The notes beneath the pieces are model-generated. The model did no database searches. It saw only the letters and a list, made by a program, of their open reading frames with translations, and had not been told where the DNA came from. DNA of 64,000 nucleotides, taken from a virus. Its lineage: Duplodnaviria; Caudoviricetes. Of this stretch, positions 4,948 through 58,683 are shown one piece after another. The stretch lies in the IMG/VR virus record IMGVR_UViG_3300027759_000001; one strand, given 5' to 3'. The position numbers were made by a program, and so were the translations under genes. Positions within the stretch are counted from its first letter, which is position 1, and each line of letters starts with the position of its first letter.

Positions 4948-4959
4948 TATTTATAAATT

Positions 4960-6096
4960 ATGGGTAAAAATATAATTATTGAGGAATTAGATAGGATAAA
5001 AACTATAATGGGTATTTTGGTTGAACAAGAACAACAATTAGAGCCATTGGTAAGTGGTGATTTAACTATTAAGTATAGTAATTTTGCACCTGACAGGAAT
5101 TTCAGAAAAAACTATGTTTATATTAATGGTGTGTCTGACAAAGATATTACTAAACTAAAAGAATTAAAATTATCAAATACAAATAGTAAAGTTATATTAA
5201 AAAACTATAACACAAATGAAACGTTTGAATTTCCTCAAAAAGAAGTGAAGATAACAATAAATGGTAAATTATATATTCTTGATACGGAGTATAATAAAAT
5301 AATAAAGACATTAGAGACTCATGAAATTGAATTGAATAAGGATTTCCTAAAAAAAATGGAGTCAAAGTTTCCTGATTTTATGATTAAAGTAATGAGAGAA
5401 GTTTATCCTAATAATTGGGGTAAAAATGGTTTTACCGATAGTAATGGTATTTGTGATACTGAGGAAGGTTTAATAAATATTGAAGGGACTAATGTTCCTG
5501 GTCAAACTTGGTCAATACTTAATTACTTTGATACTAATCCTAAAGTAATACAACAATTAATTGAATGGTTTTATAGTGGTGTGTTTAATAATGATGAAAC
5601 ACCACTTAAATCAAGTATTAAGGATTTTGAGAGTTGGATAACAACCAATAAAGAAGAAATATTCAAAGGAGATAATTTAAATAAACTAGTATCACTTAAC
5701 AGAACATCATATGAAAATGGAATTAAGAGTGAAAATACTACAATTGATAAATTAACTCAATCACCATTCAACATTCCAAGAGAAAATATTAAACAATATT
5801 GTTCAGGATCAAGAGAAGATAGATTTGAGGCAAAAGATCTTAAAATAGAAACACCTGATGGAGATAAACACGTTCAAATAAAACCATTGGAATGGTTTAA
5901 GATTGATGAGAAAACAGGTGAATATATTGTTAAGACTTATTATATGAAAAACTATAAAGGTTATTTAAAAAGATACGGACTTAATTATATTGCGTTCATT
6001 AACAATAAAAATATATTAGTCTTTGATAATAAGGATTATGATCTTGATGGGTATCACTATGTGAAGTTCAAGAATAAACCTGTTGAAAAAATATAA
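4960..6096 (+). CDS. Leader-bearing protein with putative C-terminal PD-(D/E)xK nuclease-like domain
   Basis: EELDRIKTIMGILVEQ leader; G...E...D..EAKD...VQIK motif near C-terminus. Confidence 0.45.
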   Translation: MGKNIIIEELDRIKTIMGILVEQEQQLEPLVSGDLTIKYSNFAPDRNFRKNYVYINGVSDKDITKLKELKLSNTNSKVILKNYNTNETFEFPQKEVKITINGKLYILDTEYNKIIKTLETHEIELNKDFLKKMESKFPDFMIKVMREVYPNNWGKNGFTDSNGICDTEEGLINIEGTNVPGQTWSILNYFDTNPKVIQQLIEWFYSGVFNNDETPLKSSIKDFESWITTNKEEIFKGDNLNKLVSLNRTSYENGIKSENTTIDKLTQSPFNIPRENIKQYCSGSREDRFEAKDLKIETPDGDKHVQIKPLEWFKIDEKTGEYIVKTYYMKNYKGYLKRYGLNYIAFINNKNILVFDNKDYDLDGYHYVKFKNKPVEKI

Positions 6097-6098
6097 CA

Positions 6099-7595
6099 AT
6101 GAAGATAGTAATAAGTGAAGAACAATTAAAAACTTTAGTACATCTCATCAAAGAAGATAATGGTAAAATTAATGTTATGTTTGTTGGTGATAGTCATAGT
6201 GCTGGCGATGGATGGACATGGAACTATTTAATTGCAAAAGACCATCCAGAGTGGGACGTTACTCAATTAGCGGTAGGAGGTAAAACAACAAAATGGATGT
6301 TGCAAAATCTTACAACAAAATTAAATGAAAAAAAATATGATTTAGTTTTCATTTATGGCGGAGCTAATGACGTGATGTCACCACAACCAATCTCAACACC
6401 AATAGGTAATATACAAAAAATGGTTGACTTAGTTAATGGTCAAGGAGGTAAAGTGATTGTGTTGGTAGGTTTTGACAGTGAGTCAATATTTAATCCAGAA
6501 AAAGTGACAACAACTAAATATTGTGATAGAGAATGTATGATTGGTTTTAAACCTAAAAGAATAAAATATCAAGCTGATCTACCAAATAGTATTACAGGAG
6601 CAATAATAATACCAAAATTAGTTGGTGATATAAGTTGGAGTAGTGATGGTGTTCACGTAGGATCCGCAAAACACAAGTTAATGAAAGATCACGTTTATAG
6701 TAATATGGGTGATTTAAAAAATATAAAGGTTGACACTAAAACTAATAGTGGTACTAACACCGAAACTCAAAGTGCGTCACAAAAAATATTTAATTCAATT
6801 AAAAACATATTATCTAAAAAAGATAAAATGGAAAGTACTGCAACGCCTGAAGACATTAAGACAATACAATTATCATTAAATGTTATTAATAAAGATGATT
6901 TACCAATGACAGGTCAAATAAATGATGAAACCACTAAAGCAATTGAAAACTATCAAGAAACAAATAATTTAGATAAAACTGGTAAATTAAGTCCTGATAC
7001 AACAGGTGGTATTATAAGTGATTTTTTATTTAAGATAACAGGTAAAAGATATACTTTTGGTAAATCAAGTACTACTGAAAAATCAGAACAAAATTTTAAT
7101 CCGATGGTTATAATAAATCCTGGTGTAAAAGTAAAGACTTTTCCATCTGACATTGAAACTAAGTTCAAAAATGCGGTTGGTGATAATTATGATAGTTTTA
7201 TTTCTGACGTTGAGGAGATTGGTTTAGATCCAAAAATTGCAATTAGACAATTATATACTGAATCCGCATTTAGTCCCGATGTTATGTCATGTAAAAGAAC
7301 ATCAACTGCGGGAGCTAAAGGTATTGCTCAGTTTATGCCAGGCACTTGGCCGTCATATGGTGGTGGTGGTAATCCTTGTAATATTAGTGACGCATTGAAA
7401 GCATATCCTAAAATGATGAAAGTATTGTTAAATAAATTCCCAGGAAGACTTGATCTTTCAATTGCGGGGTATAATAGCGGACCTAACTTAAAAGCTTATT
7501 CTAACGCATTAAAAAACAAAACACCTTTTACGGAACTTAAAGGCGTAATACCAAATGAATCTTATAACTACGCATCTTCAATACTCCAACCATAA
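6099..7595 (+). CDS. Leader + SGNH/GDSL hydrolase + peptidoglycan-binding domain + SLT lytic transglycosylase
   Basis: MKIVISEEQ; VGDSHSAG, GGAND, DGVH; ETTKAIENYQ...TGKL; TESAF...AGAKGIAQFMP...AGYNSGP. Confidence 0.85.
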   Translation: MKIVISEEQLKTLVHLIKEDNGKINVMFVGDSHSAGDGWTWNYLIAKDHPEWDVTQLAVGGKTTKWMLQNLTTKLNEKKYDLVFIYGGANDVMSPQPISTPIGNIQKMVDLVNGQGGKVIVLVGFDSESIFNPEKVTTTKYCDRECMIGFKPKRIKYQADLPNSITGAIIIPKLVGDISWSSDGVHVGSAKHKLMKDHVYSNMGDLKNIKVDTKTNSGTNTETQSASQKIFNSIKNILSKKDKMESTATPEDIKTIQLSLNVINKDDLPMTGQINDETTKAIENYQETNNLDKTGKLSPDTTGGIISDFLFKITGKRYTFGKSSTTEKSEQNFNPMVIINPGVKVKTFPSDIETKFKNAVGDNYDSFISDVEEIGLDPKIAIRQLYTESAFSPDVMSCKRTSTAGAKGIAQFMPGTWPSYGGGGNPCNISDALKAYPKMMKVLLNKFPGRLDLSIAGYNSGPNLKAYSNALKNKTPFTELKGVIPNESYNYASSILQP

Positions 7596-8173
7596 TGATA
7601 ATAAGTGAGTCAAATATTGATGATATGAAATATGAGGTTGAGCAATCCATTGAGGAGTTTGGCCTGATTAAAACATTAAAGAGATATAAATTTCCGTTTA
7701 AGTTGGCAAATATAATGTTCCAACTTACAAGACCATTTACTAGTGAAGAATGTAATCAAATATTATATTATTATCTTGTTGAAAAGAAAGTATTATCAAA
7801 AACGTATGAAGATAAAGATGTTGATGTTGAGATTTCTACCGATAATTTGGAGGGATCTTGGCGTTTTATAATAGAATTTAAAAAAACCAAAGAAGCTATG
7901 AGCGGTTATGGTACAATGTTTTGGGGTGATGAGGATATTTTACCAATAGATGTGACGGTATATAGTAATGAGATTCGTAATTATGATACTGACACAGAGT
8001 TAAATTATCATGTTAATATTAATTTTGAATTTCATAAGATATCTGAGTTGTTAGATTGGTTTAATTCAAATTATTATGATATTATTATAGACACTTGTAC
8101 TGATTGGTTAGAGGAATGTAGATTGGAAATGTTTGAATGGTTATCACAAAATGATCCTGACTATATTGACTAA
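7595..8173 (+). CDS. Hypothetical protein (MIISES leader variant)
   Basis: 192 aa ORF overlapping the previous stop. Confidence 0.7.
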   Translation: MIISESNIDDMKYEVEQSIEEFGLIKTLKRYKFPFKLANIMFQLTRPFTSEECNQILYYYLVEKKVLSKTYEDKDVDVEISTDNLEGSWRFIIEFKKTKEAMSGYGTMFWGDEDILPIDVTVYSNEIRNYDTDTELNYHVNINFEFHKISELLDWFNSNYYDIIIDTCTDWLEECRLEMFEWLSQNDPDYID

Positions 8174-8200
8174 TTAAATCAAATACCATATAATTAAAAT

Positions 8201-8407
8201 ATGGGAAATAATAACAATAATAATGGTGGAGGAATGGGTTTAGGAACCATTCTATTTTTAATATTCTTAGTCCTAAAACTTACAAATTATATTGATTGGT
8301 CTTGGTGGTGGGTAACTGCTCCATTGTGGATTACTGCGATATTATACATTGTTATCGCAATAATAATGGCAACTTATTTTTCAAAAAAAGATTGGAGAAT
8401 AAAATGA
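8201..8407 (+). CDS. Small two-TM membrane protein
   Basis: ILFLIFLVLKLT.YIDWSWWWVTAPLWI hydrophobic pattern. Confidence 0.75.
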   Translation: MGNNNNNNGGGMGLGTILFLIFLVLKLTNYIDWSWWWVTAPLWITAILYIVIAIIMATYFSKKDWRIK

Positions 8408-9459: not shown

Positions 9460-10626
9460 ATGTCAGAGGAACACAAATTATCACCATTCTTTAAAAGAAG
9501 GATTGACCATCATAAGTTTGAAAAAATGATGAGGAAAGGTATTATCTATATGTATCAAGAATCAAATTCCCTTGAAGAATTTAAATTTAAGTTAGTTAAA
9601 GCAACATTAGAAAATTATATTTATTATAAATATAATATTGATATTGAAGATTTACCTCACAATGATGTGGATAATTTTATTGATTATATGGTTGATACTT
9701 ATGAACCTGTACTTAAGATGTATTATTATAATGAAAGAAAAAATAGTGGTAATATAAATGAAAATTATAGTCCAGCAGGAAAAGAAATTACACCAAACAA
9801 AATTGTTATACATAAATCTAACCCAAAGTTTAGAGATATAATATCAAATGAAGGGTTAAAAGTAAGGGCTGGAGAATGTTATAAAATATATGCAGGTTAT
9901 GGTGAAAAATGTATACCAGCAATCTTTGCAACTAACTCAATAAATAAAAGAGCATCGTTTGATTCCACATATGATGACGATGTTTGGGAAATTGATACTG
10001 AAATGATACCTGATGTTAAGTGGTACAAAGATAAACACTATGAATCAAGATCAAAACATATAGTAACATTTGAAAACATACCTGCAGATGCAATAACATT
10101 AAAACATGAAGGTACAGGTAAGGATTGGGGATTAATGGAATCAACTAATGATGATAAGTTAAGTAAAGAAACAATGGTGGGTACATTTCAAGACATTGTT
10201 GAGGAAACGTTGGAGGAAATTAGAAATATTTGTGAAGTACTTGATATAGATACTTTCCCTGGTTGGTTGTCGTTTGATGGTTGTGATGTTGTTGATACTA
10301 TAGATAAAATAACTATTGTAAATATAGAAAGAAAAAAAGGTATAAGTAGAATTCCTATGTTTGAAGTTGATGTAAATCTGACGCTTAATGGTATTTGGGG
10401 AGGAATTGATTATGATGATTTTATTTATACTATTTCGGATAGAATAATTGGTAAATGGAAGATACATTTAATTTTTAATATTAAAGAACAGGAGAATAGT
10501 AATAAACGAGAAATGTGGGAATACGCAAGGACACTAAAAAATGCAAGAACTCAGGGATCCAAATTAAGGTTCTCTAAGTCTGCAGTCAAAGCAAACCCTA
10601 TGAGGTTTAGACCATACAATAGATGA
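9460..10626 (+). CDS. Multidomain protein: RR-domain + ADP-ribosyltransferase-like domain + acidic domain
   Basis: FFKRRI N-domain; HKS......I..EGL...IFAT...WEID...IP.DAI middle domain bounded by NINE and GLME. Confidence 0.55.
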   Translation: MSEEHKLSPFFKRRIDHHKFEKMMRKGIIYMYQESNSLEEFKFKLVKATLENYIYYKYNIDIEDLPHNDVDNFIDYMVDTYEPVLKMYYYNERKNSGNINENYSPAGKEITPNKIVIHKSNPKFRDIISNEGLKVRAGECYKIYAGYGEKCIPAIFATNSINKRASFDSTYDDDVWEIDTEMIPDVKWYKDKHYESRSKHIVTFENIPADAITLKHEGTGKDWGLMESTNDDKLSKETMVGTFQDIVEETLEEIRNICEVLDIDTFPGWLSFDGCDVVDTIDKITIVNIERKKGISRIPMFEVDVNLTLNGIWGGIDYDDFIYTISDRIIGKWKIHLIFNIKEQENSNKREMWEYARTLKNARTQGSKLRFSKSAVKANPMRFRPYNR

Positions 10627-11213
10627 AAGAGTTAATTAGAAAAATATTGAAGGAAGAAAGAATGAACCCAATCAAAAAGTTCTTCTTTAATCATTGGGAT
10701 GAAATAAGATCCGAAGGGGAATACCCAACTATTGATTATAGTTTAATTGGTAAACTTGGATTTAGAAAAAAAGCAATAGAAATACATGATTACTATCTTG
10801 AATACATTGGTGGTGAAGGTATTGGTGAAGAAAAATTATTAGATTTTTTGTCAAATCAAACATTTGATTCTAGTGAACTAAATTTCAGAAGACACTGGGA
10901 TGATGAAGATTTAAAATTTACGTTTAAGTTAAGTAATGTTCGTATTACTAATGATAGAGATGGGGATAAAAACATTGATGCGGATGCGGACATACTTGAG
11001 GGTTATATTAATATGACAGAGTATAATGATATAGAGGACGAACATTATCAAAACAGGTATGATATTTCAAGGGGTAATAACGAAATAGATGATATGTCCT
11101 CTTACTTTGAGGTTCAGGATGAACTTAGGGCAATAATTCAATCATTTATTATTGATTTTGCAATAAAATATGGTACAGAAATTACCGAAGCTGAGGTTGA
11201 ATTATTAAAATAA
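10623..11213 (+). CDS. LIRKILKEE-leader hypothetical protein, paralog of 11438..11992
   Basis: MKELIRKILKEERMNPIKKFFFNHWDE. Confidence 0.75.
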   Translation: MKELIRKILKEERMNPIKKFFFNHWDEIRSEGEYPTIDYSLIGKLGFRKKAIEIHDYYLEYIGGEGIGEEKLLDFLSNQTFDSSELNFRRHWDDEDLKFTFKLSNVRITNDRDGDKNIDADADILEGYINMTEYNDIEDEHYQNRYDISRGNNEIDDMSSYFEVQDELRAIIQSFIIDFAIKYGTEITEAEVELLK

Positions 11214-11236
11214 TTTGTATATTTGTATTATTAATC

Positions 11237-11377
11237 ATGTCTAACAATATACAAACATACAAAAAGATGAAAACTATAGAGATCACAATTCAAGAAATCT
11301 GGGCGGCAACAAGACCTATTGTTCAGAAGAGCAAGAAATCTTACACTCGTAAGAGAAAACATAAGAATGTGGATTAA
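11237..11377 (+). CDS. Small basic protein (alternative start 11267), weak ArfA-like motif
   Basis: Manual translation ...RPIVQKSKKSYTRKRKHKNVD; TATATTTG at 11218-11225; hairpin/T-run downstream. Confidence 0.55.
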   Translation: MSNNIQTYKKMKTIEITIQEIWAATRPIVQKSKKSYTRKRKHKNVD

Positions 11378-11437
11378 TTCCATTGACCTGATAAACTACG
11401 TCTCAGGTTTTGTTTTTTTATGATATTTATAATTTAT

Positions 11438-11992
11438 ATGAAAGATTTAATCAGAAAAATATTAAGGGAAGAAAAGGTTAATCCTGTAAAGAAATATTTC
11501 TTTGATCTTTGGGATGAACAGAAATCATTAGGTGATACACCAAGATACGATAAGAAGATGGTAAAGAGGCTTGGTTTTAGTACAAAACAAAGGGACATAA
11601 TGGGTTACTACAGAGAATATATGGGTAATGTTTATGACATGAGAAAAGATTTTGAAAGATATCTAACTAGTAAAAAAGAATTAACCACAGACGATATGGA
11701 AGATGAGGGTATTCATACAGGTGGATATGATTTTTCATTTAAATTTCCATATGTTTTTGTAAGAGAAGAAAATAATCAAGTTGAGATATTTGTTGATTTT
11801 GATATTACTCACGGTAGTGTTACTTTAATGACAAACGGTGAGGAATATGATTTAACTGATCACGAATCAATTGAGGATGATCTTTGGTTAGAACTTAGTT
11901 CAGAAATACAAGATATGATACAAGATTTTGTTGTGGCAACTGCGAACTCATTTGGTGTGGAATTTTATGACGTATATGTTCAATGGGGTTAA
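11438..11992 (+). CDS. LIRKILREE-leader hypothetical protein, paralog of 10623..11213 (start revised)
   Basis: MKDLIRKILREEKVNPVKKYFFDLWDE; TATTTAT upstream. Confidence 0.75.
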   Translation: MKDLIRKILREEKVNPVKKYFFDLWDEQKSLGDTPRYDKKMVKRLGFSTKQRDIMGYYREYMGNVYDMRKDFERYLTSKKELTTDDMEDEGIHTGGYDFSFKFPYVFVREENNQVEIFVDFDITHGSVTLMTNGEEYDLTDHESIEDDLWLELSSEIQDMIQDFVVATANSFGVEFYDVYVQWG

Positions 11993-12375
11993 GCGTACCA
12001 ATTAGTTGGAGTAACTTCATTAGTTAATGGATTGATATCAATCTTACAATTTTGTGGTAATAAAGAACTAAATGTTCCACGGAACATATTCACCAATTCA
12101 TCACACCATATCTTATCTACATGACATTTACAAATAACATCAATTCTTAACACATAATCTGTAGCATGAACTATCATCTCAAAATCGCTATATTCGTTAG
12201 AAGTAATACGCCTACCTTCATATCTTACCGTTGGTTTATCAAGTTTTTTAAGGTTGATAGATCTAACATTATATACCACACCGTTACTCATCTCAACTAA
12301 GAAATCCTGGAATAAATGAAATCGTCTCTCAAGGTTCATAATTACAATTATAATAACCACGTATAACATAATCAA
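11989..12375 (-). CDS. Hypothetical protein (start uncertain)
   Basis: 128 aa ORF filling the gap between + strand genes. Confidence 0.5.
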   Translation of the reverse strand: MIMLYVVIIIVIMNLERRFHLFQDFLVEMSNGVVYNVRSINLKKLDKPTVRYEGRRITSNEYSDFEMIVHATDYVLRIDVICKCHVDKIWCDELVNMFRGTFSSLLPQNCKIDINPLTNEVTPTNWYA

Positions 12376-12417
12376 ATACTATTCTGTTAAAACAATTTTT
12401 AAATATATTTATACTAT

Positions 12418-13110
12418 ATGAAAGAACGTTTTAATCCGTTTATTATTAGGAGACTGAAACAAATTGATGATCTTGTTGATGAGGTTTACCATGAGGTAAC
12501 ACCTTGTGATTACGATGAAGATAAGTTTTATATGTACTTCAGGGAGATAACTAATTGGGTGGTAGAAAACTTTGTAAATAATAACAATTTAGGAGACGAT
12601 GATATTGCAATTGATTTACATCATTTCATAAGAGAAAGATATTTTGATGAGTTTTTAGATTACTTTGATAATGCACAATTAAGTTGTAATGAATCTTTAA
12701 ATGAATCTGAGGATTTAGGTGATTTTAATTATAATAATAACGAAGAAAAGAAATTGGATAAAAAAAAAGTAACTCCTTCAGATTTAAAAAAGATTGAATT
12801 TATTGCCGATTATATTGAGATGGTAAGTGGTGAATATTTAAATAGGTCAAATTATAAACCTTGTTTTGTTTCAGTTCAAGCGGGACATAATAAATTTTAT
12901 ATAGTTGTAATTGTTACTGATAAAAAATATACTTTGGAAGGATACGAAAAATTCATTAATGAAAAATTACATAAAACATTCAAAGGGATGGACATTTATG
13001 TTTTATTAATTGATAATAAATATGACGATGGTGATAGTATTCCTAAAAGTTGTGATGATTATTTTAACCATATACCTAAACTTCCTAATACAATTACTAT
13101 AGAATTTTAA
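12418..13110 (+). CDS. RR-domain protein with second domain after NESLNES linker
   Basis: IIRRL...TPCDY...; internal LNE motifs. Confidence 0.7.
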   Translation: MKERFNPFIIRRLKQIDDLVDEVYHEVTPCDYDEDKFYMYFREITNWVVENFVNNNNLGDDDIAIDLHHFIRERYFDEFLDYFDNAQLSCNESLNESEDLGDFNYNNNEEKKLDKKKVTPSDLKKIEFIADYIEMVSGEYLNRSNYKPCFVSVQAGHNKFYIVVIVTDKKYTLEGYEKFINEKLHKTFKGMDIYVLLIDNKYDDGDSIPKSCDDYFNHIPKLPNTITIEF

Positions 13111-17112: not shown

Positions 17113-17958
17113 ATGAACTTACAAGAGAACATACAAAGAATTAGATCAATGATGGGTCTCAGGGAAGAAACTGAGATAAAAGATATTGATATGGATATTT
17201 CTTACAAATACGATCCAAAAGTAATTGAAATTCAAAAAGAATTAACCAATAAAGGATATTATATTGGAAAATTTGGTGATGATAAAGATGGTATTGACGG
17301 AATATATGGTCCAATTACAAAGGCGGCACATGAATCTTACAAAAAAGAAATACCACCAGAAGAGTTTGAATCAAAAAAAACTGAAATGGCTAAAGAGTAT
17401 GTAGATGAAGTGGATGTTAGTGATTTAAAAGAATTTAAATTTCATAAAATACCTGGAGGAACAAATAATTGGAGATCGGCTCAAATAACCGCAGATGTAT
17501 TACCTTCAGTAATTAAAAAATATGGTATAAAAAATATTATCAGAATGAGTGGTGATGACGAAAAACATAAAAGTGATCACCCTAAAACATCTTTAGATAC
17601 TGAACAAAAAATATGTGAAGAAAATGATTGTACTTACCATTTTATTAATGCTCATAGTGGATATAAATTAGGTAAAGGTTATACTAAATCAATACAAAAA
17701 ATTAATGACATTTTAAATCAAGGTAATACATTAATTCACTGTGCTCACGGTGCTGATAGAACTGGAGGAATGGTTGGTGCTTATCTTAAAAATAATGGTT
17801 ATATGACAGATAAAGATGAATTATGGAAATATACCACACAATTTAATAGTTGGCAAAGCTTAATTAATAATAATAATTTTTTTGGAAGTGGTTACGACAA
17901 ATATGCCGACGGATTTTACCCTATCTCAGAATTAAAAAATTCAAAATGGGTTAAATAA
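17113..17958 (+). CDS. MNLQE leader + peptidoglycan-binding domain + CX5R (tyrosine/dual-specificity) phosphatase
   Basis: IQKEL...GY...DGIDGIYGPITKAA; WRSAQ; IHCAHGADRTG P-loop. Confidence 0.8.
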   Translation: MNLQENIQRIRSMMGLREETEIKDIDMDISYKYDPKVIEIQKELTNKGYYIGKFGDDKDGIDGIYGPITKAAHESYKKEIPPEEFESKKTEMAKEYVDEVDVSDLKEFKFHKIPGGTNNWRSAQITADVLPSVIKKYGIKNIIRMSGDDEKHKSDHPKTSLDTEQKICEENDCTYHFINAHSGYKLGKGYTKSIQKINDILNQGNTLIHCAHGADRTGGMVGAYLKNNGYMTDKDELWKYTTQFNSWQSLINNNNFFGSGYDKYADGFYPISELKNSKWVK

Positions 17959-27014: not shown

Positions 27015-27355
27015 ATAACAAGTTAAAAAAAATTATTAGGGGAGTATTAATGGAATCTTTAACTGAGTCAGAACCTCTTTGGTATAGATTACCTAATAAT
27101 ATACTTAATGAATTGGGGATTGAATTATATAACCCTGATGATGAGGCTTATGTTGTTGAGATACATTTTGATACTAAGAACGTATTGATTCAATTATATA
27201 CAGTAGAATTTAACGAATTGGTTCCGTATTGGAATTCTAATCAAATACCTGGTAATATAAAAGATAATTTTGATATACCTTTAAGTGAAATCCCAAAAAG
27301 TTTAAAAAGTCTTATCTTTAGAAGATTAAACCCTAGTTATCACAAATACCTATGA
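27011..27355 (+). CDS. KKIIRGVLME-leader hypothetical protein
   Basis: 5' end nearly identical in DNA to 26709. Confidence 0.7.
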   Translation: MNNKLKKIIRGVLMESLTESEPLWYRLPNNILNELGIELYNPDDEAYVVEIHFDTKNVLIQLYTVEFNELVPYWNSNQIPGNIKDNFDIPLSEIPKSLKSLIFRRLNPSYHKYL

Positions 27356-36643: not shown

Positions 36644-37474
36644 TTAAAAAGTTTTTAAATCGTTTTTAGAAAACGTATATTCCGCACTGTACAAGTACTC
36701 ACCAAAGTTAAGGTCATACCAAGGACTTTGTCCATCATCACCTACAAGGATTTGAATGTCTTGTGCTGGCATATAACTTTGAGTCAACATAAATTTTACT
36801 TCATTCTTTTTATTTACACATTTATCTACAACGATAACTGCGTGACCAGGGAATCCACCAATTATAAACACATCACCAATTTGTAGATCAATGGTACTCT
36901 TTGAGGTTAGTTGTTTGTTTAAAGAGTAAGTATTTGCGTAACAGAAAACACCACACATATAAGACCAAAGGTTTTCATTGGTTGGAGTTTTTCCGCCTAA
37001 GTAAGATAAATAATTGGCCTTTTTACCACTTACGTATGAAAACTCTATTTCACTATAACGTTTTTGGGAAAATAAATATTCAGCTCGTAATCTCATAACC
37101 GCATCTGCACATTGATAATCTCTATTTCCTTTAAATGCAAGATCTACTACGGCACAGTAAGCGGATGTGTTGTATTTTAAGGTACCATCAAAATGATGAA
37201 CTTGAGAACCATGAGGTTTTAGTGGTAGATTTTGTAAATAAGACCCCCAAGACCCACCTTCGGATTTAACACGAGTAAATCCATCTGGTGTGTTAAAACG
37301 ATTCTTAACGTTTGTTCCACTTTCATTAACGATTGGTTTATCTTTCACAATGGTATCAGTAACAACTTCAGTTGTTATATTATTGTTTTGTGATGATGTA
37401 TTACCGCAAGATATTGTGGTAAATAAAATGATAAGAGATAAGATAACTTTAGTAGATAAGATAATTTTTTTCAT
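36644..37474 (-). CDS. DUF4846-like Bacteroidota lipoprotein
   Basis: Lipobox TISC; RF..P.GF.RV...YLQNLPLK...QCADAVMRLRAEYLF...PGHAV.V.D...AQSYMPAQ. Confidence 0.8.
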   Translation of the reverse strand: MKKIILSTKVILSLIILFTTISCGNTSSQNNNITTEVVTDTIVKDKPIVNESGTNVKNRFNTPDGFTRVKSEGGSWGSYLQNLPLKPHGSQVHHFDGTLKYNTSAYCAVVDLAFKGNRDYQCADAVMRLRAEYLFSQKRYSEIEFSYVSGKKANYLSYLGGKTPTNENLWSYMCGVFCYANTYSLNKQLTSKSTIDLQIGDVFIIGGFPGHAVIVVDKCVNKKNEVKFMLTQSYMPAQDIQILVGDDGQSPWYDLNFGEYLYSAEYTFSKNDLKTF

Positions 37475-40580: not shown

Positions 40581-41264
40581 ATGAAAAAAATTGTAAAACT
40601 TACGGAATCTGAATTAAAAAAAGTTCTCAAAAAAATCATAAATGAAAGTTTACTACTTGAGTCATCTGCTGATTCATTAAATAGAGGTCAATTAGAATCA
40701 ACTTATCGTAAATATAATGATTTGGGTTCAGATGGGACTTTTAATGAAATCTTTAAAAATGAAAGAGAACAAGGATTAACACCATTTACTGAATTTGTCA
40801 ATGGATGTGCAACTAAGGTATCATTAGCAATTAACTCCGCAGGTGGAACTCTTAAACCGAGTTTTATCGTTACCAATGGACCATTTAAAGGTAAAAATGT
40901 TAACACATCCGCAACCGGTCTTAAAAATGAATTATTGAAAAAATGGGGAACTCCTGACGTTAAAATTGATAAGGTAACAAGTTTAGAGGAAGTACAACAG
41001 AAAATTGGACCAGGAAGAAGTGGTGTTTTTATATGTACCCCATGTGGTTTTGGGAGTGGAGCTAGTGGTCATGCAACAATATGGAGTTGGTGGAAGAATG
41101 GTAAAAAAGGTGGTCCGTTAGACGATAGTAGTTATCCTGAAGAAAATGGTGGTACAATATATTTTTGGGGAGTTGGTGGAACAAATGAGGAAGTAGCAAC
41201 AAAGTGTGGATATAATTCTTGGAGTGAATACGAAAAGGCAAATTTTAAATGTAAAACAAATTAA
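40581..41264 (+). CDS. Leader + Tae4-like (NlpC/P60 superfamily) peptidoglycan amidase
   Basis: NGCATKVSLAIN, WGTPD, SGVFI...ASGHATIW, GTIYFW match Tae4 Cys/His motifs. Confidence 0.75.
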   Translation: MKKIVKLTESELKKVLKKIINESLLLESSADSLNRGQLESTYRKYNDLGSDGTFNEIFKNEREQGLTPFTEFVNGCATKVSLAINSAGGTLKPSFIVTNGPFKGKNVNTSATGLKNELLKKWGTPDVKIDKVTSLEEVQQKIGPGRSGVFICTPCGFGSGASGHATIWSWWKNGKKGGPLDDSSYPEENGGTIYFWGVGGTNEEVATKCGYNSWSEYEKANFKCKTN

Positions 41265-50800: not shown

Positions 50801-51904
50801 ATGGCAAAAATAATTAAATTAAATGAAAACGATCTTAAAAGAATCGTTATTAAAGTTCTTAATGAAAGACGACTTAATGAAGATGATGTAGTCACTAATG
50901 GTTTATCTCCTGGTGCTATCACACAAGACGTTGCCGATCAATTAAAATACACAGAAAATGAAACAGATCCTGAAGACAGATTTGAATCGATATGTAATGT
51001 ATGTACGTCAGGTAAAGAAGGGTTAGGCCCAATAACTCAAAGTGAAAGTGCTTTAGATGGTATTGCTGAAAGTATATATGATGCAATTGAGGAAGGTAGT
51101 TGGTATACTCTTGGTGCGGGAACTAATGAGAAAAAAGTAGAAAATGGTATACGTAATACTAAAAGTTTTCCTGATTTCTGTTATATGATTTCTAGTTATA
51201 GTGCTAAATATGAGGACTTCTTTGAATCAATGGATGGAGATTTTGCTCAAAACGAGGAATATAGACGATATTTGGTATCACCTGTTGCTGATGTTATTAG
51301 ATATAGTACTAAATTAATTGATAAAAAATCTGATGTTAAAGTAGACCCTAAAAAAGATGATGTTGTTACTCCTGGTGGAGGTGGATCTGAGGATAATTGG
51401 AATATGTATATGTGTGTTATTGAGCATCCAAAGGCAATTGGTGAAAAATATGCCGATGGTAAAAGAACTCGTTTTAGAATTGGAACTGATTATTATATGG
51501 GTAATGGTAAAAAAATACGTAAGGGTATTGAATTAGATTATTCGTGTGAAGACAAAGAGTTTGATAATGTTGATTTTGCGGATAAAGAAAATAACAAATC
51601 TAACAACGGTAATAAAAGACCTATAAATGCAGAAATAAAAGACATACAAAAATTTTTAACTGACGAAGGATATGATATCTCAACTGATGGTGAAATAGGT
51701 AGCGAAACCGCAGGTTCAATTATTGATTATATTGTTGATAATAATTCAGACGAATTTAAGCCAGGATCTGTTTTAGAACTTCAAAAGAAAATTAATAGTT
51801 GTTATTCTATGAAAATTAAAGAAGATGGAAAAGTTGGTCCTGAAACATTAGACGCTATTGCAGACGCATTAGAATCAGCACAAGACGGAGATCTTTGTAA
51901 ATAA
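50801..51904 (+). CDS. Leader + annexin-like repeat + Cys module + two peptidoglycan-binding-like domains
   Basis: MAKIIKLNENDL...; IYDAI...GAGTNEKKV; IQKFL...DGEIG; LQKKI...DGKVGPET. Confidence 0.6.
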   Translation: MAKIIKLNENDLKRIVIKVLNERRLNEDDVVTNGLSPGAITQDVADQLKYTENETDPEDRFESICNVCTSGKEGLGPITQSESALDGIAESIYDAIEEGSWYTLGAGTNEKKVENGIRNTKSFPDFCYMISSYSAKYEDFFESMDGDFAQNEEYRRYLVSPVADVIRYSTKLIDKKSDVKVDPKKDDVVTPGGGGSEDNWNMYMCVIEHPKAIGEKYADGKRTRFRIGTDYYMGNGKKIRKGIELDYSCEDKEFDNVDFADKENNKSNNGNKRPINAEIKDIQKFLTDEGYDISTDGEIGSETAGSIIDYIVDNNSDEFKPGSVLELQKKINSCYSMKIKEDGKVGPETLDAIADALESAQDGDLCK

Positions 51905-54496: not shown

Positions 54497-56713
54497 ATGA
54501 AATTATTTAGTTACTTATTTTTGTTGTTGACCTTTCAGGGGTTTGCACAATATTGTCCATATCTTGGACCAGATCAATTATTACCTTGTGGGGTAGGTAC
54601 CACTACTCTAACCGCCGATTTAAGTCAGTGTGGGGTTGGGGGATCCAATCCTAATCAAACTACAAACTATGGTGTGTCTAACATTCCTTATGTTGCTCAA
54701 ACAAATACGGGAACAAGTTTGTTTATGACAGATGACTCACAACAAGGTCCATTTAATATTGGGTTTAACTTTTGTTTCTTTGGGACAACATATACTCAAT
54801 TCTATGTTGGATCTAATGGTTGGATTTCATTCTCTCCAGGACAACCAACAACATTTACAACACAAACAATCCCTACGGGTAATGTTTTAGTCCCTAGAAA
54901 TTGTATTATGGGACCTTGGCAAGATTGGCATCCTGGATTGGGGGGTCAAATTAAATACCAAGTACAAGGTGTTGCTCCGTGTAGAAAGTTAGTTGTTAGT
55001 TGGATTAATATGCCAATGTTTTCTTGTACGTCTAATCTTGGAACATTCCATATTGTAATATACGAATCAACAAACTATATTGAAAATCACATTCAAAATA
55101 AACCTGCTTGTTTACAATGGCAAGGAGGAACTGCAACTCAAGGGATTCATAATTCATTAGGAACTATTGGTATTGCATCTCCAGGAAGAAACTCAACGGC
55201 TTGGACTACTCAAAATAACTCATATAGATGGACACCAAGTGGACCTGTTGTTAATCCTGTTTTAACTTGGTATCAAGTAGGTAATCCAAACCCAATTGGT
55301 ACAGGTCCGACAATTACTGTAACCCCTCCACCTGCAGGGGCAAATTATACTTGTCATTTTGTATATCCTATTTGTAATGTGGGATGGAGTACGTGTAATG
55401 TGGGTATTGGAAATTTGGGTCCTGACACCGTATTTGTGGCTCCTGGCCCACCTAATTTACCTCCACCAATAGTAACAACATTTAACCCAAATTGTGCTGG
55501 TAGTTGTGATGGGACAATAAACGTAGTGTCAAATGGGGGTACGGGTGTTCAGACAATTTCTTGGAATGGTCAACCACCATTGTTTACGTTAACTAATTTA
55601 TGTGCTGGTACGTATTCATTTACTATTGTGGATGCTGCGGGTTGTAATGTTTCAGGTACCACAACTTTAATTAACCCACCACCTGTAATTGCAAATCCAA
55701 TTATCGGATCAGACACTGCGTGTTATCAGTCAATAAATAACATATATACAACAACAGATTTAGGTATGGGATATACGTATCAATGGACATCTGTTGGTAA
55801 TATAACCTCATCACAAGGTAATGATTCTGTGGTTGTTGATTGGTCAGGATTTCCTGCAGGATTTATACCAAATGCAGTTGATATGGTTGCAATAAGTCCA
55901 AACGGTTGTACAAGTTTACCTGTTTCATTTGATGTGAATATTTTTAACGTACTTCCCGTAATAACACCTTCAGGTCCATTCTGTTCTAATGATGAGTTTT
56001 CTACATTAAGTGCAACACCTATAGGTGGGACATTTAGTGGGATTGGTTTGATAGGTAATGATTTTTATCCGTCAAATGCAGATACGTTAAATAACATAAT
56101 TACTTACACTTATACTCAGAGTGGTTGTGTGTTTGATACTACAACAAATATTATAGTTTATGAAAACCCACAAATATCTCAGATTAGTCCATACAATGAT
56201 TTCTTTGAACTATGTGATGGAGATACGATGTCAAGTGTGTATTCGGTAGTTTCAACGTTACCAGGAGGATATAATGAATGGTCATTTTCTAATAACACAA
56301 CTCAATCAACTAATTTTAACATAACATGGGATAGTTTTGGTATGTTCCCACTATCCGTTGTGAATTGGGTAAATGGTTGTCCGTCTAATCAAGAACAAAC
56401 GGTTATTACAATTGTACAATGTCCTAATTTATTATACTATATTCCAAATTCATTTACACCTGATGGTGATGAACATAATAACACTTTTAAATGGACATTT
56501 ACAAGTGGTTTTGATCCTATGAATTTTAATATTTTAATCTTTAATAGATGGGGAGAACTTATTTTTGAAAGTAATAACTCTAATGGTTATTGGGATGGTA
56601 CATACGGAGATACTATGTGTCCTTTGGGTGTATACACATACAAACTACAATTTGATAATCAGAAAAATGATGGTAAATATTTATTCATAGGAAACGTAAA
56701 CCTAATTAGATGA
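54497..56713 (+). CDS. Secreted surface protein with SprB-like repeat and gliding-motility (T9SS type-B) C-terminal domain
   Basis: Signal peptide; C.GSCDG.I.V...GG......W......NLCAGTY...I.DA.GC; YIPNSFTPDGD..N..F...IFNRWGELIF...WDG...GVY. Confidence 0.85.
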   Translation: MKLFSYLFLLLTFQGFAQYCPYLGPDQLLPCGVGTTTLTADLSQCGVGGSNPNQTTNYGVSNIPYVAQTNTGTSLFMTDDSQQGPFNIGFNFCFFGTTYTQFYVGSNGWISFSPGQPTTFTTQTIPTGNVLVPRNCIMGPWQDWHPGLGGQIKYQVQGVAPCRKLVVSWINMPMFSCTSNLGTFHIVIYESTNYIENHIQNKPACLQWQGGTATQGIHNSLGTIGIASPGRNSTAWTTQNNSYRWTPSGPVVNPVLTWYQVGNPNPIGTGPTITVTPPPAGANYTCHFVYPICNVGWSTCNVGIGNLGPDTVFVAPGPPNLPPPIVTTFNPNCAGSCDGTINVVSNGGTGVQTISWNGQPPLFTLTNLCAGTYSFTIVDAAGCNVSGTTTLINPPPVIANPIIGSDTACYQSINNIYTTTDLGMGYTYQWTSVGNITSSQGNDSVVVDWSGFPAGFIPNAVDMVAISPNGCTSLPVSFDVNIFNVLPVITPSGPFCSNDEFSTLSATPIGGTFSGIGLIGNDFYPSNADTLNNIITYTYTQSGCVFDTTTNIIVYENPQISQISPYNDFFELCDGDTMSSVYSVVSTLPGGYNEWSFSNNTTQSTNFNITWDSFGMFPLSVVNWVNGCPSNQEQTVITIVQCPNLLYYIPNSFTPDGDEHNNTFKWTFTSGFDPMNFNILIFNRWGELIFESNNSNGYWDGTYGDTMCPLGVYTYKLQFDNQKNDGKYLFIGNVNLIR

Positions 56714-57577: not shown

Positions 57578-58402
57578 ATGTTATTAAAAAATGGATCCAA
57601 AGGAGAGGACGTAAAAACACTCCAAACAAAATTAGGACTTACTGCTGACGGTGCATTTGGACCTGGAACAGAAAAGAAAGTAAAAGAATGGCAATCCGCC
57701 AATGGATTAACCGCAGATGGTATTGTTGGTGATGGAACATGGTCAAAAATGTTCGGATCTGCTCAAGTTATTAAAGAAGATGTGGTAATTCCTTCAGGTG
57801 GATCATTAAATATTGAAAAATTAAAGGGTCATATACCTGATGCAGTGATTGCACAGATACCTGAGACCGCAAAAAAGTTCAATATTACAAATAATCTACG
57901 TTTGGCTCACTTTTTGGCTCAATGTGGTCACGAATCAGGAGGTTTTAAGGCGGTTTCTGAGAATTTAAACTATTCTGCGGATGGTTTGAAGAAAATATTC
58001 GGAAAATACTTCCCTGGTAACCTAAATGAATCATATGCTCGTCAACCTGAGAAGATTGCGGCTCGTGTTTACGCTAGTAGAATGGGAAATGGGGATGAAA
58101 CCACTAAAGAAGGGTTCAAATTCAGAGGTAGAGGGTATATTCAGTTGACAGGTAAGTCAAATTACACCAATTTTACCAAATTTATTGGTGAAGATTGTGT
58201 TTCTAACCCTGATTTGGTTGCAACTAAGTATCCATTGGCTTCTGCAGCGTTCTTTTTTGATTCAAACAAGTTATGGACTATCTGTGACAAGGGATCTGAC
58301 GATGCAACGGTAACTGCAGTAACAAAAAGAGTGAATGGAGGTACAATTGGACTACCTGATCGTATTAAACACTTCAAAGAGTACTATAATTTACTTAAAT
58401 AA
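57578..58402 (+). CDS. Endolysin: peptidoglycan-binding domain + glycoside hydrolase family 19
   Basis: LKNGSKGEDVK.LQ...ADG.FG..T...V..WQ...GL.ADGIVG; HFLAQCGHESGG...FRGRGYIQLTG..NY...VNGG. Confidence 0.9.
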   Translation: MLLKNGSKGEDVKTLQTKLGLTADGAFGPGTEKKVKEWQSANGLTADGIVGDGTWSKMFGSAQVIKEDVVIPSGGSLNIEKLKGHIPDAVIAQIPETAKKFNITNNLRLAHFLAQCGHESGGFKAVSENLNYSADGLKKIFGKYFPGNLNESYARQPEKIAARVYASRMGNGDETTKEGFKFRGRGYIQLTGKSNYTNFTKFIGEDCVSNPDLVATKYPLASAAFFFDSNKLWTICDKGSDDATVTAVTKRVNGGTIGLPDRIKHFKEYYNLLK

Positions 58403-58452: not shown

Positions 58453-58683
58453 ATGTTTTTTACAATCGTTTTATGTGTTTTTACACTAGTTTTAATCGTT
58501 TTTGGAGTTGGTTTGTTTGTTTGGTGGAAAAAATTTGGTAAATCGTTCTTTGATATGGCCAAAAACCTAACTAATATGAATAAAACCATGTTTAACCCTA
58601 AAAATATGGGTAATATGGGTAATATGGGAGATATTAACCAACAAATGAAAATAATCCAAGATTTTTTTAAGAAAAAACAATAA
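58453..58683 (+). CDS. Small single-TM protein
   Basis: N-terminal hydrophobic helix, NMG repeats. Confidence 0.6.
   Translation: MFFTIVLCVFTLVLIVFGVGLFVWWKKFGKSFFDMAKNLTNMNKTMFNPKNMGNMGNMGDINQQMKIIQDFFKKKQ

Follow-up and report, generated by a model that had tools for sequence, protein, structure and literature searches.

Gene locus and protein architecture

In this study, we investigated a gene located at positions 6099-7595 of IMGVR_UViG_3300027759_000001, an IMG/VR record of a virus of the Caudoviricetes, and the window mentioned hereafter is the whole stretch of 64,000 nucleotides that was analysed. The gene is the sole long reading frame at its locus, on the + strand, and its product (P0001) carries a short leader followed by an SGNH esterase domain, a peptidoglycan-binding domain and a lytic transglycosylase (LT) domain of the SLT type. 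Positions of the gene and its parts are given below, together with the AlphaFold2 confidence of the esterase domain as predicted local distance difference test (pLDDT).

6099-7595, + strand: target gene, leader + SGNH esterase + PG_binding_1 + SLT lytic transglycosylase, 498 amino acids, ATG start and TAA stop
6099-6164, + strand: leader, residues 1-22 (MKIVISEEQLKTLVHLIKEDNG), amphipathic helix at residues 7-17, tripeptides ISE (5-7) and IKE (17-19), acidic spacer following
6165-6728, + strand: SGNH/GDSL esterase domain, residues 23-210 (Pfam PF13472; pLDDT 87.8)
6192-6194, 6366-6368, 6645-6647 and 6654-6656, + strand: codons of the SGNH residues Ser32, Asn90, Asp183 and His186, to which Gly61 is added
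6846-7040, + strand: PG_binding_1 domain, residues about 250-314, three helices (Pfam PF01471)
7134-7592, + strand: SLT domain (family 1, GH23-type), residues about 346-498 (Pfam PF01464), catalytic Glu388 at 7260-7262

An earlier note on this DNA had described a leader, SGNH motifs, a peptidoglycan-binding domain and SLT motifs within one open reading frame (ORF), and our data agree with it, as all the motifs it quoted are present and the Pfam matches in the protein, namely Lipase_GDSL_2, PG_binding_1 and SLT, are all over the gathering score. The protein has three domains with intact catalytic sites. Its AlphaFold model (pLDDT 82, predicted template modelling score 0.45) displays three confident domains joined by disordered linkers at residues 210-224 and 322-337, suggesting that they are arranged like beads on a string. 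No signal peptide was found in the 498 residues. More than 150 metagenomic relatives of the same architecture, down to 40% identity, were detected in a search of 5.8 billion proteins, and these are harbored by contigs of up to 279-292 kb. Conservation was assessed from an alignment of 37 full-length homologs with 40-87% identity to the target. A tblastn search of the target against 50,697 GenBank phage records gave one weak match, which covered the SLT part only, and the target therefore has no cultured-phage relatives.

The PG_binding_1 match (PF01471) spans residues 251-301 with an E-value of 1.2e-6 and 29 bits against a cut-off of 23, and the helices at 250-264, 276-288 and 299-314 form a three-helix bundle in the model. 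In the PDB, its profile matched CtpB over the region that binds peptidoglycan, and phiKZ gp144 over the N-terminal domain (3bkh, E 6.9e-5). The SLT match (PF01464) spans residues 376-466 with an E-value of 3.9e-8 and 33.3 bits against a cut-off of 21.3, and harbors YTESAF (E388 and S389), AGAKGIAQFMPG (405-414) and IAGYNSGP (456-462), so that the family 1 LT motifs E388-S389, G408-I-A-Q-F-M413 and A456-G-Y-N-S-G461 are all present. Invariant positions among the homologs include E388, S389, the G408/A410-M413 stretch, Y458, N459, C398 and C427. PHROG 669, an endolysin family (E 4e-15), and PHROG 342, an "internal virion protein with endolysin domain" (E 1.7e-14), both match the SLT part, and the PHROGs database thereby groups the protein's C-terminal part with endolysins, lytic tail proteins and internal virion proteins. 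In the PDB, the SLT profile matched the SLT domain of a tape-measure protein (9b45) and Slt70.

Motifs, fold and relatives of the SGNH domain

The SGNH domain matched Lipase_GDSL_2 (PF13472, clan CL0264) over residues 28-122, with an E-value of 3.9e-10 and 40.9 bits against a cut-off of 32.9. Blocks I (GDS), II (Gly), III (GxND) and V (DxxH) of the SGNH superfamily are all found in the target, in the motifs FVGDSHS (G30, D31 and S32), AVGGKT (G61), YGGANDV (G87, G88, N90 and D91) and SSDGVHV (D183 and H186). Residues G30, D31, S32, G87, G88, N90, D183 and H186 are invariant in all 37 homologs, and G61 of block II and D91 are retained in at least 90% of them.

The AlphaFold2 model of this domain (pLDDT 87.8) exhibits the three-layer alpha/beta/alpha fold of SGNH proteins. 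In the structural comparison by VIA-align, 790 of the 999 compared chains reached a Z-score of at least 5, and the best 50 listed were all SGNH-type esterases. These include TesA (4jgg, Z 19.7, root-mean-square deviation 2.3 Å, 165 residues aligned), Iah1 (3mil, Z 19.1, 2.6 Å, 186 aligned), the carbohydrate acetylesterase Est24 (5hoe, Z 18.5, 2.5 Å, 175 aligned) and E. coli thioesterase I (5tic, Z 18.4, 2.6 Å, 165 aligned), and the CE3 esterases and Axe2 gave a Z-score of about 17. As modelled, the SGNH domain is a minimal SGNH hydrolase core, and its fold is no guide to the substrate. Sequence profiles A1 and A3, searched against all PDB sequences (E-values up to 1 and 10), found the nearest solved proteins to be PAF-acetylhydrolase-like GDSL proteins (2hsj, 4iyj and PAF-AH Ib), the sialate O-acetylesterase 6njc, Iah1 and TesA. 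Judged by these matches, the characterised relatives nearest to the SGNH domain appear to be mostly acetyl-specific esterases. NCBIfam provided no informative SGNH family for the domain.

Fusion partners and exchange of the esterase cassette

A profile of the SGNH domain only recovered 691 relatives in a search of 1.84 billion representatives. In the multidomain relatives scanned, the partners that Pfam names are SLT (P0166 and P0131), Phage_lysozyme2 (P0149 and P0159), PG_binding_1 alone (P0130 and P0133), VanY (P0202) and GDPD. Of the two Phage_lysozyme2 fusions, one follows the leader and the other follows a different N-terminal module of 110 residues, which also heads an SGNH+SLT protein, and in several further multidomain relatives a second Pfam domain was not found. 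The single-domain cellular relatives P0140, P0147, P0163 and P0172 carry a signal peptide or a membrane anchor. Because of the peptidoglycan-directed partners and these signal peptides and anchors, the subfamily probably works outside the cytoplasm, at the wall, mostly paired with enzymes that cut between N-acetylmuramic acid (MurNAc) and N-acetylglucosamine (GlcNAc). Such cutters are the enzymes that 6-O-acetyl-MurNAc hinders (lysozymes) or blocks (LTs) (PMC1199599, PMC12148441), and a peptidoglycan esterase is therefore favoured. Among the lines of evidence that bear on the esterase substrate, the domain architecture appears to be the strongest. We also observed that P0131, a metagenomic protein of 699 amino acids, consists of leader, SGNH, dual-specificity phosphatase, PG_binding_1 and SLT, and merges the target type of gene with the kind of phosphatase with a peptidoglycan-binding domain that lies at 17113-17958 of the window.

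The esterase part of the gene was found to be an exchangeable cassette. Between P0051 and the target, the leader, SGNH, peptidoglycan-binding and SLT parts are 100, 50, 89 and 89% identical, respectively, and in P0068 the SGNH domain is 79% identical, the leader is different and the peptidoglycan-binding domain is missing. Since identities differ domain by domain, recombination at the domain borders is indicated. In the related contig L007, this gene is 71% identical to that of the window and the flanking genes are 93-98% identical. The downstream gene of 192 amino acids in L007 is 85% identical, diverging along with the target, and this co-divergence suggests either a recombination tract over both genes or a functional partner. 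L008, an IMG/VR fragment of 56 kb, harbors at 10001-12660 two tandem leader-SGNH-SLT genes without the peptidoglycan-binding domain, one for each SGNH type, which share 46% and about 70% identity with the target. L106 and L107 have, at this syntenic position, a leader, peptidoglycan-binding and SLT gene from which SGNH is cleanly absent, and no separate SGNH gene was found within 10 kb of these SGNH-less alleles. Because such alleles occupy the same slot, the LT would be the part that is always kept, with the esterase as a helper that can be dispensed with. The turnover of the cassette fits adaptation to variable wall decoration.

The phage, its probable host and the host wall

The window has about 30% G+C, is coded almost wholly on the + strand and is dense with small ORFs. 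Identical copies of the target protein occur in JGI and Logan metagenome samples, which we take to be lake samples. Two genes of the window bear on the host.

54497-56713, + strand: protein of 738 amino acids with a CHU_C sorting domain of the type IX secretion system (Pfam)
36644-37474, - strand: DUF4846 gene, sharing 60-66% identity with its counterparts in metagenome-assembled genomes (MAGs) of freshwater Crocinitomicaceae, Cryomorphaceae and further Flavobacteriales

On account of the DUF4846 identity and the CHU_C protein, the host is probably a member of the Flavobacteriales (Crocinitomicaceae- or Cryomorphaceae-like), and capture of genes from it is suggested. All five candidate-host MAGs contain 3-5 MBOAT genes, which have an SGNH gene next to them. 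The closest MAG (Crocinitomicaceae G003) displays, at L103:3442-7746, an MBOAT gene with a DHHW/AlgX-like gene and an exported SGNH-LysM gene, and at L101:2258-5349 an MBOAT gene with SGNH-LysM; homologs of the G003 SGNH-LysM protein adjoin an MBOAT gene in five out of five genomes. These clusters appear to be laid out like PatA/PatB/Ape operons, with LysM where Ape1 has CBM35. In Bacteroides species that possess clusters of this kind, 27-69% of the peptidoglycan is O-acetylated, and an O-acetylated wall of the host is plausible.

Transcription unit and neighbouring genes

The target is the middle one of three genes that form a tightly coupled unit across 4960-8173 (+ strand), behind the motif TATTTATA at 4948.

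4948-4955, + strand: promoter-like motif TATTTATA, 5 nucleotides upstream of the first gene of the unit
4960-6096, + strand: upstream gene, 378 amino acids, leader-bearing (MGKNIIIEELDRIK...), function unknown; its stop lies 2 nucleotides before the target ATG
7595-8173, + strand: downstream gene, 192 amino acids, function unknown; its start overlaps the target stop (TAATG)

Synteny of the upstream gene is kept in L005-L010, L106 and L107, and the 192-residue gene always follows the target gene in relatives. The upstream gene had zero sequence matches in Pfam, PHROG and PDB, the downstream gene had zero family or PDB sequence matches, and Pfam and PHROG scans of ten flanking ORFs gave only DUF6878 and a sub-threshold DUF5820.

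In the window, 38 ORFs of the + strand have TATTTAT 4-32 nucleotides upstream of their start, and TATAAATA together with its complement is over-represented (31 seen against 19 expected). TATTTAT(A/T), with example sites at 4948, 12406, 32143, 40569, 54486 and 57555, often directly follows a GGGGTTTTTTGTTTT-type terminator. We regard it as a candidate phage promoter that would give very short 5' leaders. In the promoter and terminator scan, sigma-70-like sites near the target gene were not above shuffled expectation. Two genes downstream of the target, an ORF of 68 amino acids (8201-8407, + strand) has an Asn/Gly-rich N-terminus and two predicted transmembrane stretches, shares 75-98% identity in most relatives and keeps its position there; a strong sigma-70-like site, TTGACT-17-TATAAT, lies just upstream of it at 8166-8194.

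The leader and the route of delivery

In the AlphaFold model, residues 1-22 adopt a short helix with low pLDDT that stands apart from the esterase core, which starts at residue 24. M1, K2, E7 and Q9 are invariant in the 37 homologs. A hydrophobic-x-Glu tripeptide is present at residues 5-7 in all 37 (owing to an additional N-terminal Met, at 6-8 in P0065), and another one at 13-15 or 17-19, again in all 37, is followed by an acidic spacer. Hydrophobic-x-Glu is the type of site that the T4 prohead protease cuts; such tripeptides are also common in Glu-rich helices.

The leader is not limited to the target. Five leader motifs (classes MKIIITExQ-like, LTExDLxRLV-like, MNLQE, EELNxMKYL and hIRKhLxEE) fall within the first 25 residues of 47 out of the 126 ORFs of at least 60 amino acids, and elsewhere in those ORFs they occur once only. 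Examples start at 27352, 32167, 17113, 45053 and 10623, and the proteins behind the leaders are mostly unrelated and of unknown family. In relatives, the leader of the target is carried by the SGNH-less alleles P0091 and P0097, by SGNH+Phage_lysozyme2 (P0149), by SGNH with a peptidoglycan-binding domain (P0130) and by the phosphatase-bearing P0131, and the stand-alone SGNH protein P0138 is headed by a different leader class. Judged by these combinations, the leader is a separable module. Further wall-directed genes of the window, with and without such a leader, are as follows.

40581-41264, + strand: leader-tagged protein with a Tae4 domain (type VI secretion system amidase effector 4; Pfam, E 2.5e-8, above the cut-off)
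17113-17958: leader-tagged peptidoglycan-binding domain and phosphatase (Pfam)
50801-51904: leader-tagged protein with a C-terminal peptidoglycan-binding domain (Pfam)
57578-58402, + strand: canonical leaderless endolysin, PG_binding_1 + GH19 (PHROG 181, E 1.4e-66)
58453-58683, + strand: ORF of 76 amino acids with a hydrophobic N-terminal stretch, following the GH19 endolysin; could be a holin or spanin

The Tae4 protein is a peptidoglycan amidase of bacterial warfare that appears here as phage cargo. Phage L105 shows the same split, as its endolysin (peptidoglycan-binding domain and Amidase_2) is leaderless and its SGNH+lysozyme protein is leader-tagged. This pattern of tagged and untagged enzymes is the best argument that tagged wall enzymes may take a route other than that of the endolysin, and it does not prove packaging. 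The resemblance of the leader to the T4 capsid-targeting sequence, together with a canonical endolysin that is leaderless elsewhere in the window, would suggest that the target is delivered with the virion, for which we see about even odds; the term "packaging-type" for the leader is an interpretation, not an observation. Two points weigh against virion delivery. The target gene lies among accessory genes rather than within a structural module, and T4 proteins that bear the capsid-targeting sequence are believed to be delivered to the cytoplasm and not to the periplasm. A search for Peptidase_S77 (T4 gp21) in two related IMG/VR fragments that are 19-26% complete gave no match, and the control genomes were also silent.

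The strongest competitor deals solely with the route of delivery and would agree with either substrate of the esterase. The target would then be absent from the virion and act as a late accessory lysin that is made in the cytoplasm and reaches the wall through holin lesions with the GH19 endolysin, and the leader would serve as a helix for docking or assembly or as a tag for regulation, or would have arisen as a by-product when promoter-leader cassettes recombined. We consider this a serious possibility, with a chance somewhat short of even. It agrees with the accessory region and its lack of recognisable structural neighbours, with the missing signal peptide, and with TATTTAT standing before the endolysin gene as well as the target operon, a sign that both may be expressed at about the same time. 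The GH19 endolysin probably fills the main lysis-enzyme role of the phage, and a lysis role for the target is also possible because of the conserved 68-residue protein with two predicted transmembrane stretches two genes downstream. O-acetylation hinders muramidases too, so the esterase would aid lysis from within. Set against this, the canonical endolysins of the window and of L105 have no leader and three other peptidoglycan-directed proteins of the window are tagged; the leader stays invariant at four positions across homologs of 40% identity and ends in hydrophobic-x-Glu in all of them, a pattern that fits a tag which is recognised and processed, as is the T4 capsid-targeting sequence; and the nearest families to the SLT domain are those of virion LTs.

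Proposed function of the esterase

LTs need the free C6 hydroxyl of MurNAc, O-acetylation at C6 blocks them, and Ape1 removes the 6-O-acetyl group, aided by an appended peptidoglycan-binding module (PMC1199599, PMC12148441). From the same block, and from the freeing of the C6 hydroxyl by Ape-type SGNH esterases, the earlier note had derived a self-unblocking enzyme that removes O-acetyl groups and then cuts the wall during injection; the biochemical logic is sound (PMC1199599, PMC12148441). The proposal itself stands in part, as the architecture, the active sites, the fusions of the subfamily and the acetyl-type relatives speak for it, and the absent relation to Ape1 and the dispensable cassette speak against it. 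The best-supported mechanism, to which we assign a probability of about 0.5, is that peptidoglycan is the target of the SGNH domain, which would most likely remove O-acetyl groups and so unblock the fused LT. Two checks named in the earlier note were taken up. The host check for pat/oat-type genes turned up MBOAT-SGNH(-LysM) clusters in the candidate host genomes, and on the structural side the fold searches returned the generic SGNH fold, with Ape1 itself missing from the best 50 matches listed per search.

In the mechanism that we propose, the peptidoglycan-binding domain would dock the protein on the sacculus, and the SGNH domain would hydrolyse ester substituents of the glycan strand, most likely the 6-O-acetyl of MurNAc. 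With the C6 hydroxyl freed, the LT could cut between MurNAc and GlcNAc and form the 1,6-anhydro bond in doing so. The esterase would be an accessory cassette that phage lineages gain, swap and lose, presumably tracking the wall decoration of the host. The leader may be an address tag like the T4 capsid-targeting sequence, by which the protein would be loaded into the particle (about even odds, as above); the tag would perhaps be trimmed after a hydrophobic-x-Glu site (IKE, residues 17-19), the wall would be attacked at infection, and lysis would be left to the separate leaderless endolysin with its peptidoglycan-binding and GH19 domains.

A wider picture can be drawn as one joint claim, and we hold it as a whole to be rather unlikely. 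Virion delivery would be combined with the first phage-borne peptidoglycan de-O-acetylase, within a tag-packed arsenal of dozens of cargo proteins. The carrier would be a jumbo phage of Flavobacteriales with interchangeable N-terminal address tags, and the periplasm-acting cargo would comprise the SGNH-LT protein, the Tae4-type amidase and the peptidoglycan-anchored phosphatase. A contractile tail would deliver them at infection in the manner of type VI secretion effectors, and the esterase cassette would be swapped to match the acetylation of the wall.

Several observations weigh against the de-O-acetylase reading. Within the subfamily, P0202 pairs SGNH with a VanY peptidase, whose reaction O-acetylation does not block, and one large relative pairs SGNH with a phosphodiesterase (GDPD). 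Close relatives manage without the SGNH cassette, and the SGNH-less alleles would show that there are hosts in which the LT can do without the esterase. Ape1, PatB and OatA are absent from the PDB sequence-profile matches at E-values up to 10, in a sequence set that presumably includes N. meningitidis Ape1, and none of the three is among the best 50 matches listed per fold search (Foldseek and VIA-align). On the host side, MBOAT-SGNH pairs can acetylate other polymers, the SGNH-domain profile found no close homolog in the five candidate-host MAGs, and hhalign of the SGNH domain with the host SGNH-LysM protein gave a probability of 9.5%, a relation at superfamily level only.

Two related ideas were tried and given up. 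Membership in the Ape1 family was not adopted, since no specific sequence relation is detectable, the SGNH fold is generic, and the compact core of the model displays no inserted CBM35-type module or beta-sandwich. Capture of the SGNH domain from an Ape-like gene of the host is likewise unsupported, by reason of the missing MAG homolog and the low hhalign probability.

With regard to the substrate, the leading competitor to the peptidoglycan esterase is a lipid esterase (lysophospholipase or lipase) acting on outer-membrane lipids or lipoprotein acyl chains, so that membrane and wall are breached together, as likened to mycobacteriophage LysB on the mycomembrane and to engineered lipase-endolysin chimeras. 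We judge it improbable. TesA and E. coli thioesterase I/lysophospholipase L1 are among the top structural matches (Z 18-19.7), which makes a lipid substrate possible and also counts against the de-O-acetylase reading; however, the minimal SGNH core is found in the same Z range in the acetyl esterases Iah1, Est24, CE3 and Axe2, and the nearest sequence relatives of known activity are acetyl-specific. JGI labels relatives as "lysophospholipase L1-like esterase", and GDSL lipases of nickie-like phages are annotated as lysis-associated. An engineered chimera of a phiKZ-type LT with its peptidoglycan-binding domain and a phage GDSL lipase kills a Gram-negative bacterium from outside (PMC12173070). 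Nevertheless, the subfamily to which the target belongs is fused to the peptidoglycan-binding domain alone and to two kinds of glycan-strand cutter, and the peptidoglycan-binding domain would keep the enzyme on the sacculus, not on the membrane.

Still less probable is that the SGNH domain deacetylates another envelope glycan (capsule, exopolysaccharide, lipopolysaccharide O-antigen or glycoprotein), with the LT fusion merely a convenient carriage of two entry enzymes. SGNH domains do this in tail spikes and fibres, where they are common: matches in BFVD include the crAss001 tail fibre, Pectobacterium tail spikes and a Vibrio tail fibre, and tailspikes that deacetylate the O-antigen are known (PMC5380687). 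Yet the target model, a monomer-like chain with a peptidoglycan-binding domain, lacks the scaffold of a fibre or spike, a beta-helix and a module for trimerisation, the partner domains of the subfamily are peptidoglycan-directed, and surface glycans lie across the outer membrane from the peptidoglycan that the other domains bind and cut. As for an acyltransferase that adds acetyl to peptidoglycan, PatB and OatA's C-terminal domain are also SGNH proteins (PMC12148441), but no MBOAT or AT3 partner gene was found nearby, the hydrolase blocks, four in the canonical set, are all intact, PatB and OatA showed no sequence relation to the domain, and an acetylated substrate would block the LT of the same chain, so that this is very improbable.

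Significance and comparison with known systems

Many bacteria defend themselves against lysozymes by O-acetylation of MurNAc, which is also an absolute block to LTs, and O-acetylated walls are also found in Neisseria, Campylobacter, Proteus and staphylococci. To our knowledge, how phages cope with wall O-acetylation has hardly been studied. If the esterase unblocks the fused LT, the target would be a phage counter-measure to wall acetylation, the gain and loss of the cassette between near-identical phages would be explained, and a natural design for lysins active on O-acetylated walls, for instance those of Bacteroides, would be at hand. The target is also one of the few functionally readable cargoes of the leader-tag system and would be a convenient reporter for the putative packaging by such tags.

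For the leader, the closest known analogue would be the T4 internal proteins' capsid-targeting sequence (PMC3012670). In T4, IPI-III and Alt are likewise unrelated cargo proteins that share only a short N-terminal tag (PMC3012670). Unlike the T4 tag, the leaders of the window have about 20 residues, belong to at least five classes, and stand on 47 ORFs in 64 kb, some of which encode periplasm-acting enzymes as the putative cargo.

With regard to the enzyme, Ape1 of Neisseria and Campylobacter (in the PatA/PatB/Ape1 cluster) is similar in being an SGNH serine esterase with Ser, Gly, Asn and His and a peptidoglycan-recognising module (PMC1199599, PMC12148441). It differs in that its module is an inserted CBM35, whereas the target has a separate PG_binding_1 domain, is phage-encoded, is fused to an LT and has no signal peptide. 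T7 gp16, an internal head protein with an N-terminal SLT domain, and phiKZ gp144, an endolysin of PG_binding_1 and LT, share with the target a family 1 LT directed at Gram-negative peptidoglycan, and both lack an esterase domain. Through PHROG 342, the SLT domain of the target matches internal virion proteins of the T7 gp16 type. T7 gp16 is a channel-forming core protein of 143 kDa, whereas the target has 56 kDa and a short leader that looks cleavable.

A review of 2017 described the virion lysins with two lytic domains then known as all coming from phages of Gram-positive bacteria, and the sole SGNH-bearing virion lysin it gave is Gp44 (Tal) of Staphylococcus phage phi11 (PMC5380687). This protein resembles the target in joining a peptidoglycan-cleaving domain to an SGNH lipase/esterase domain (PMC5380687); it differs in its Gram-positive host, in being a structural protein of the baseplate, and in its peptidase partner, which O-acetylation does not block. 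In the open literature searched, we found neither a natural SGNH-LT fusion nor any phage enzyme to which de-O-acetylation of peptidoglycan had been ascribed. All three domain types are united in one chain in ELP-E10, which joins the peptidoglycan-binding and LT endolysin of a jumbo phage to a phage GDSL lipase (PMC12173070). That chain is an engineered one, in which a lipase was wanted for crossing the outer membrane and the GDSL part was selected as such, and the order and origin of its domains differ from those of the target, which belongs with the modular phage lysins, a kind already known.

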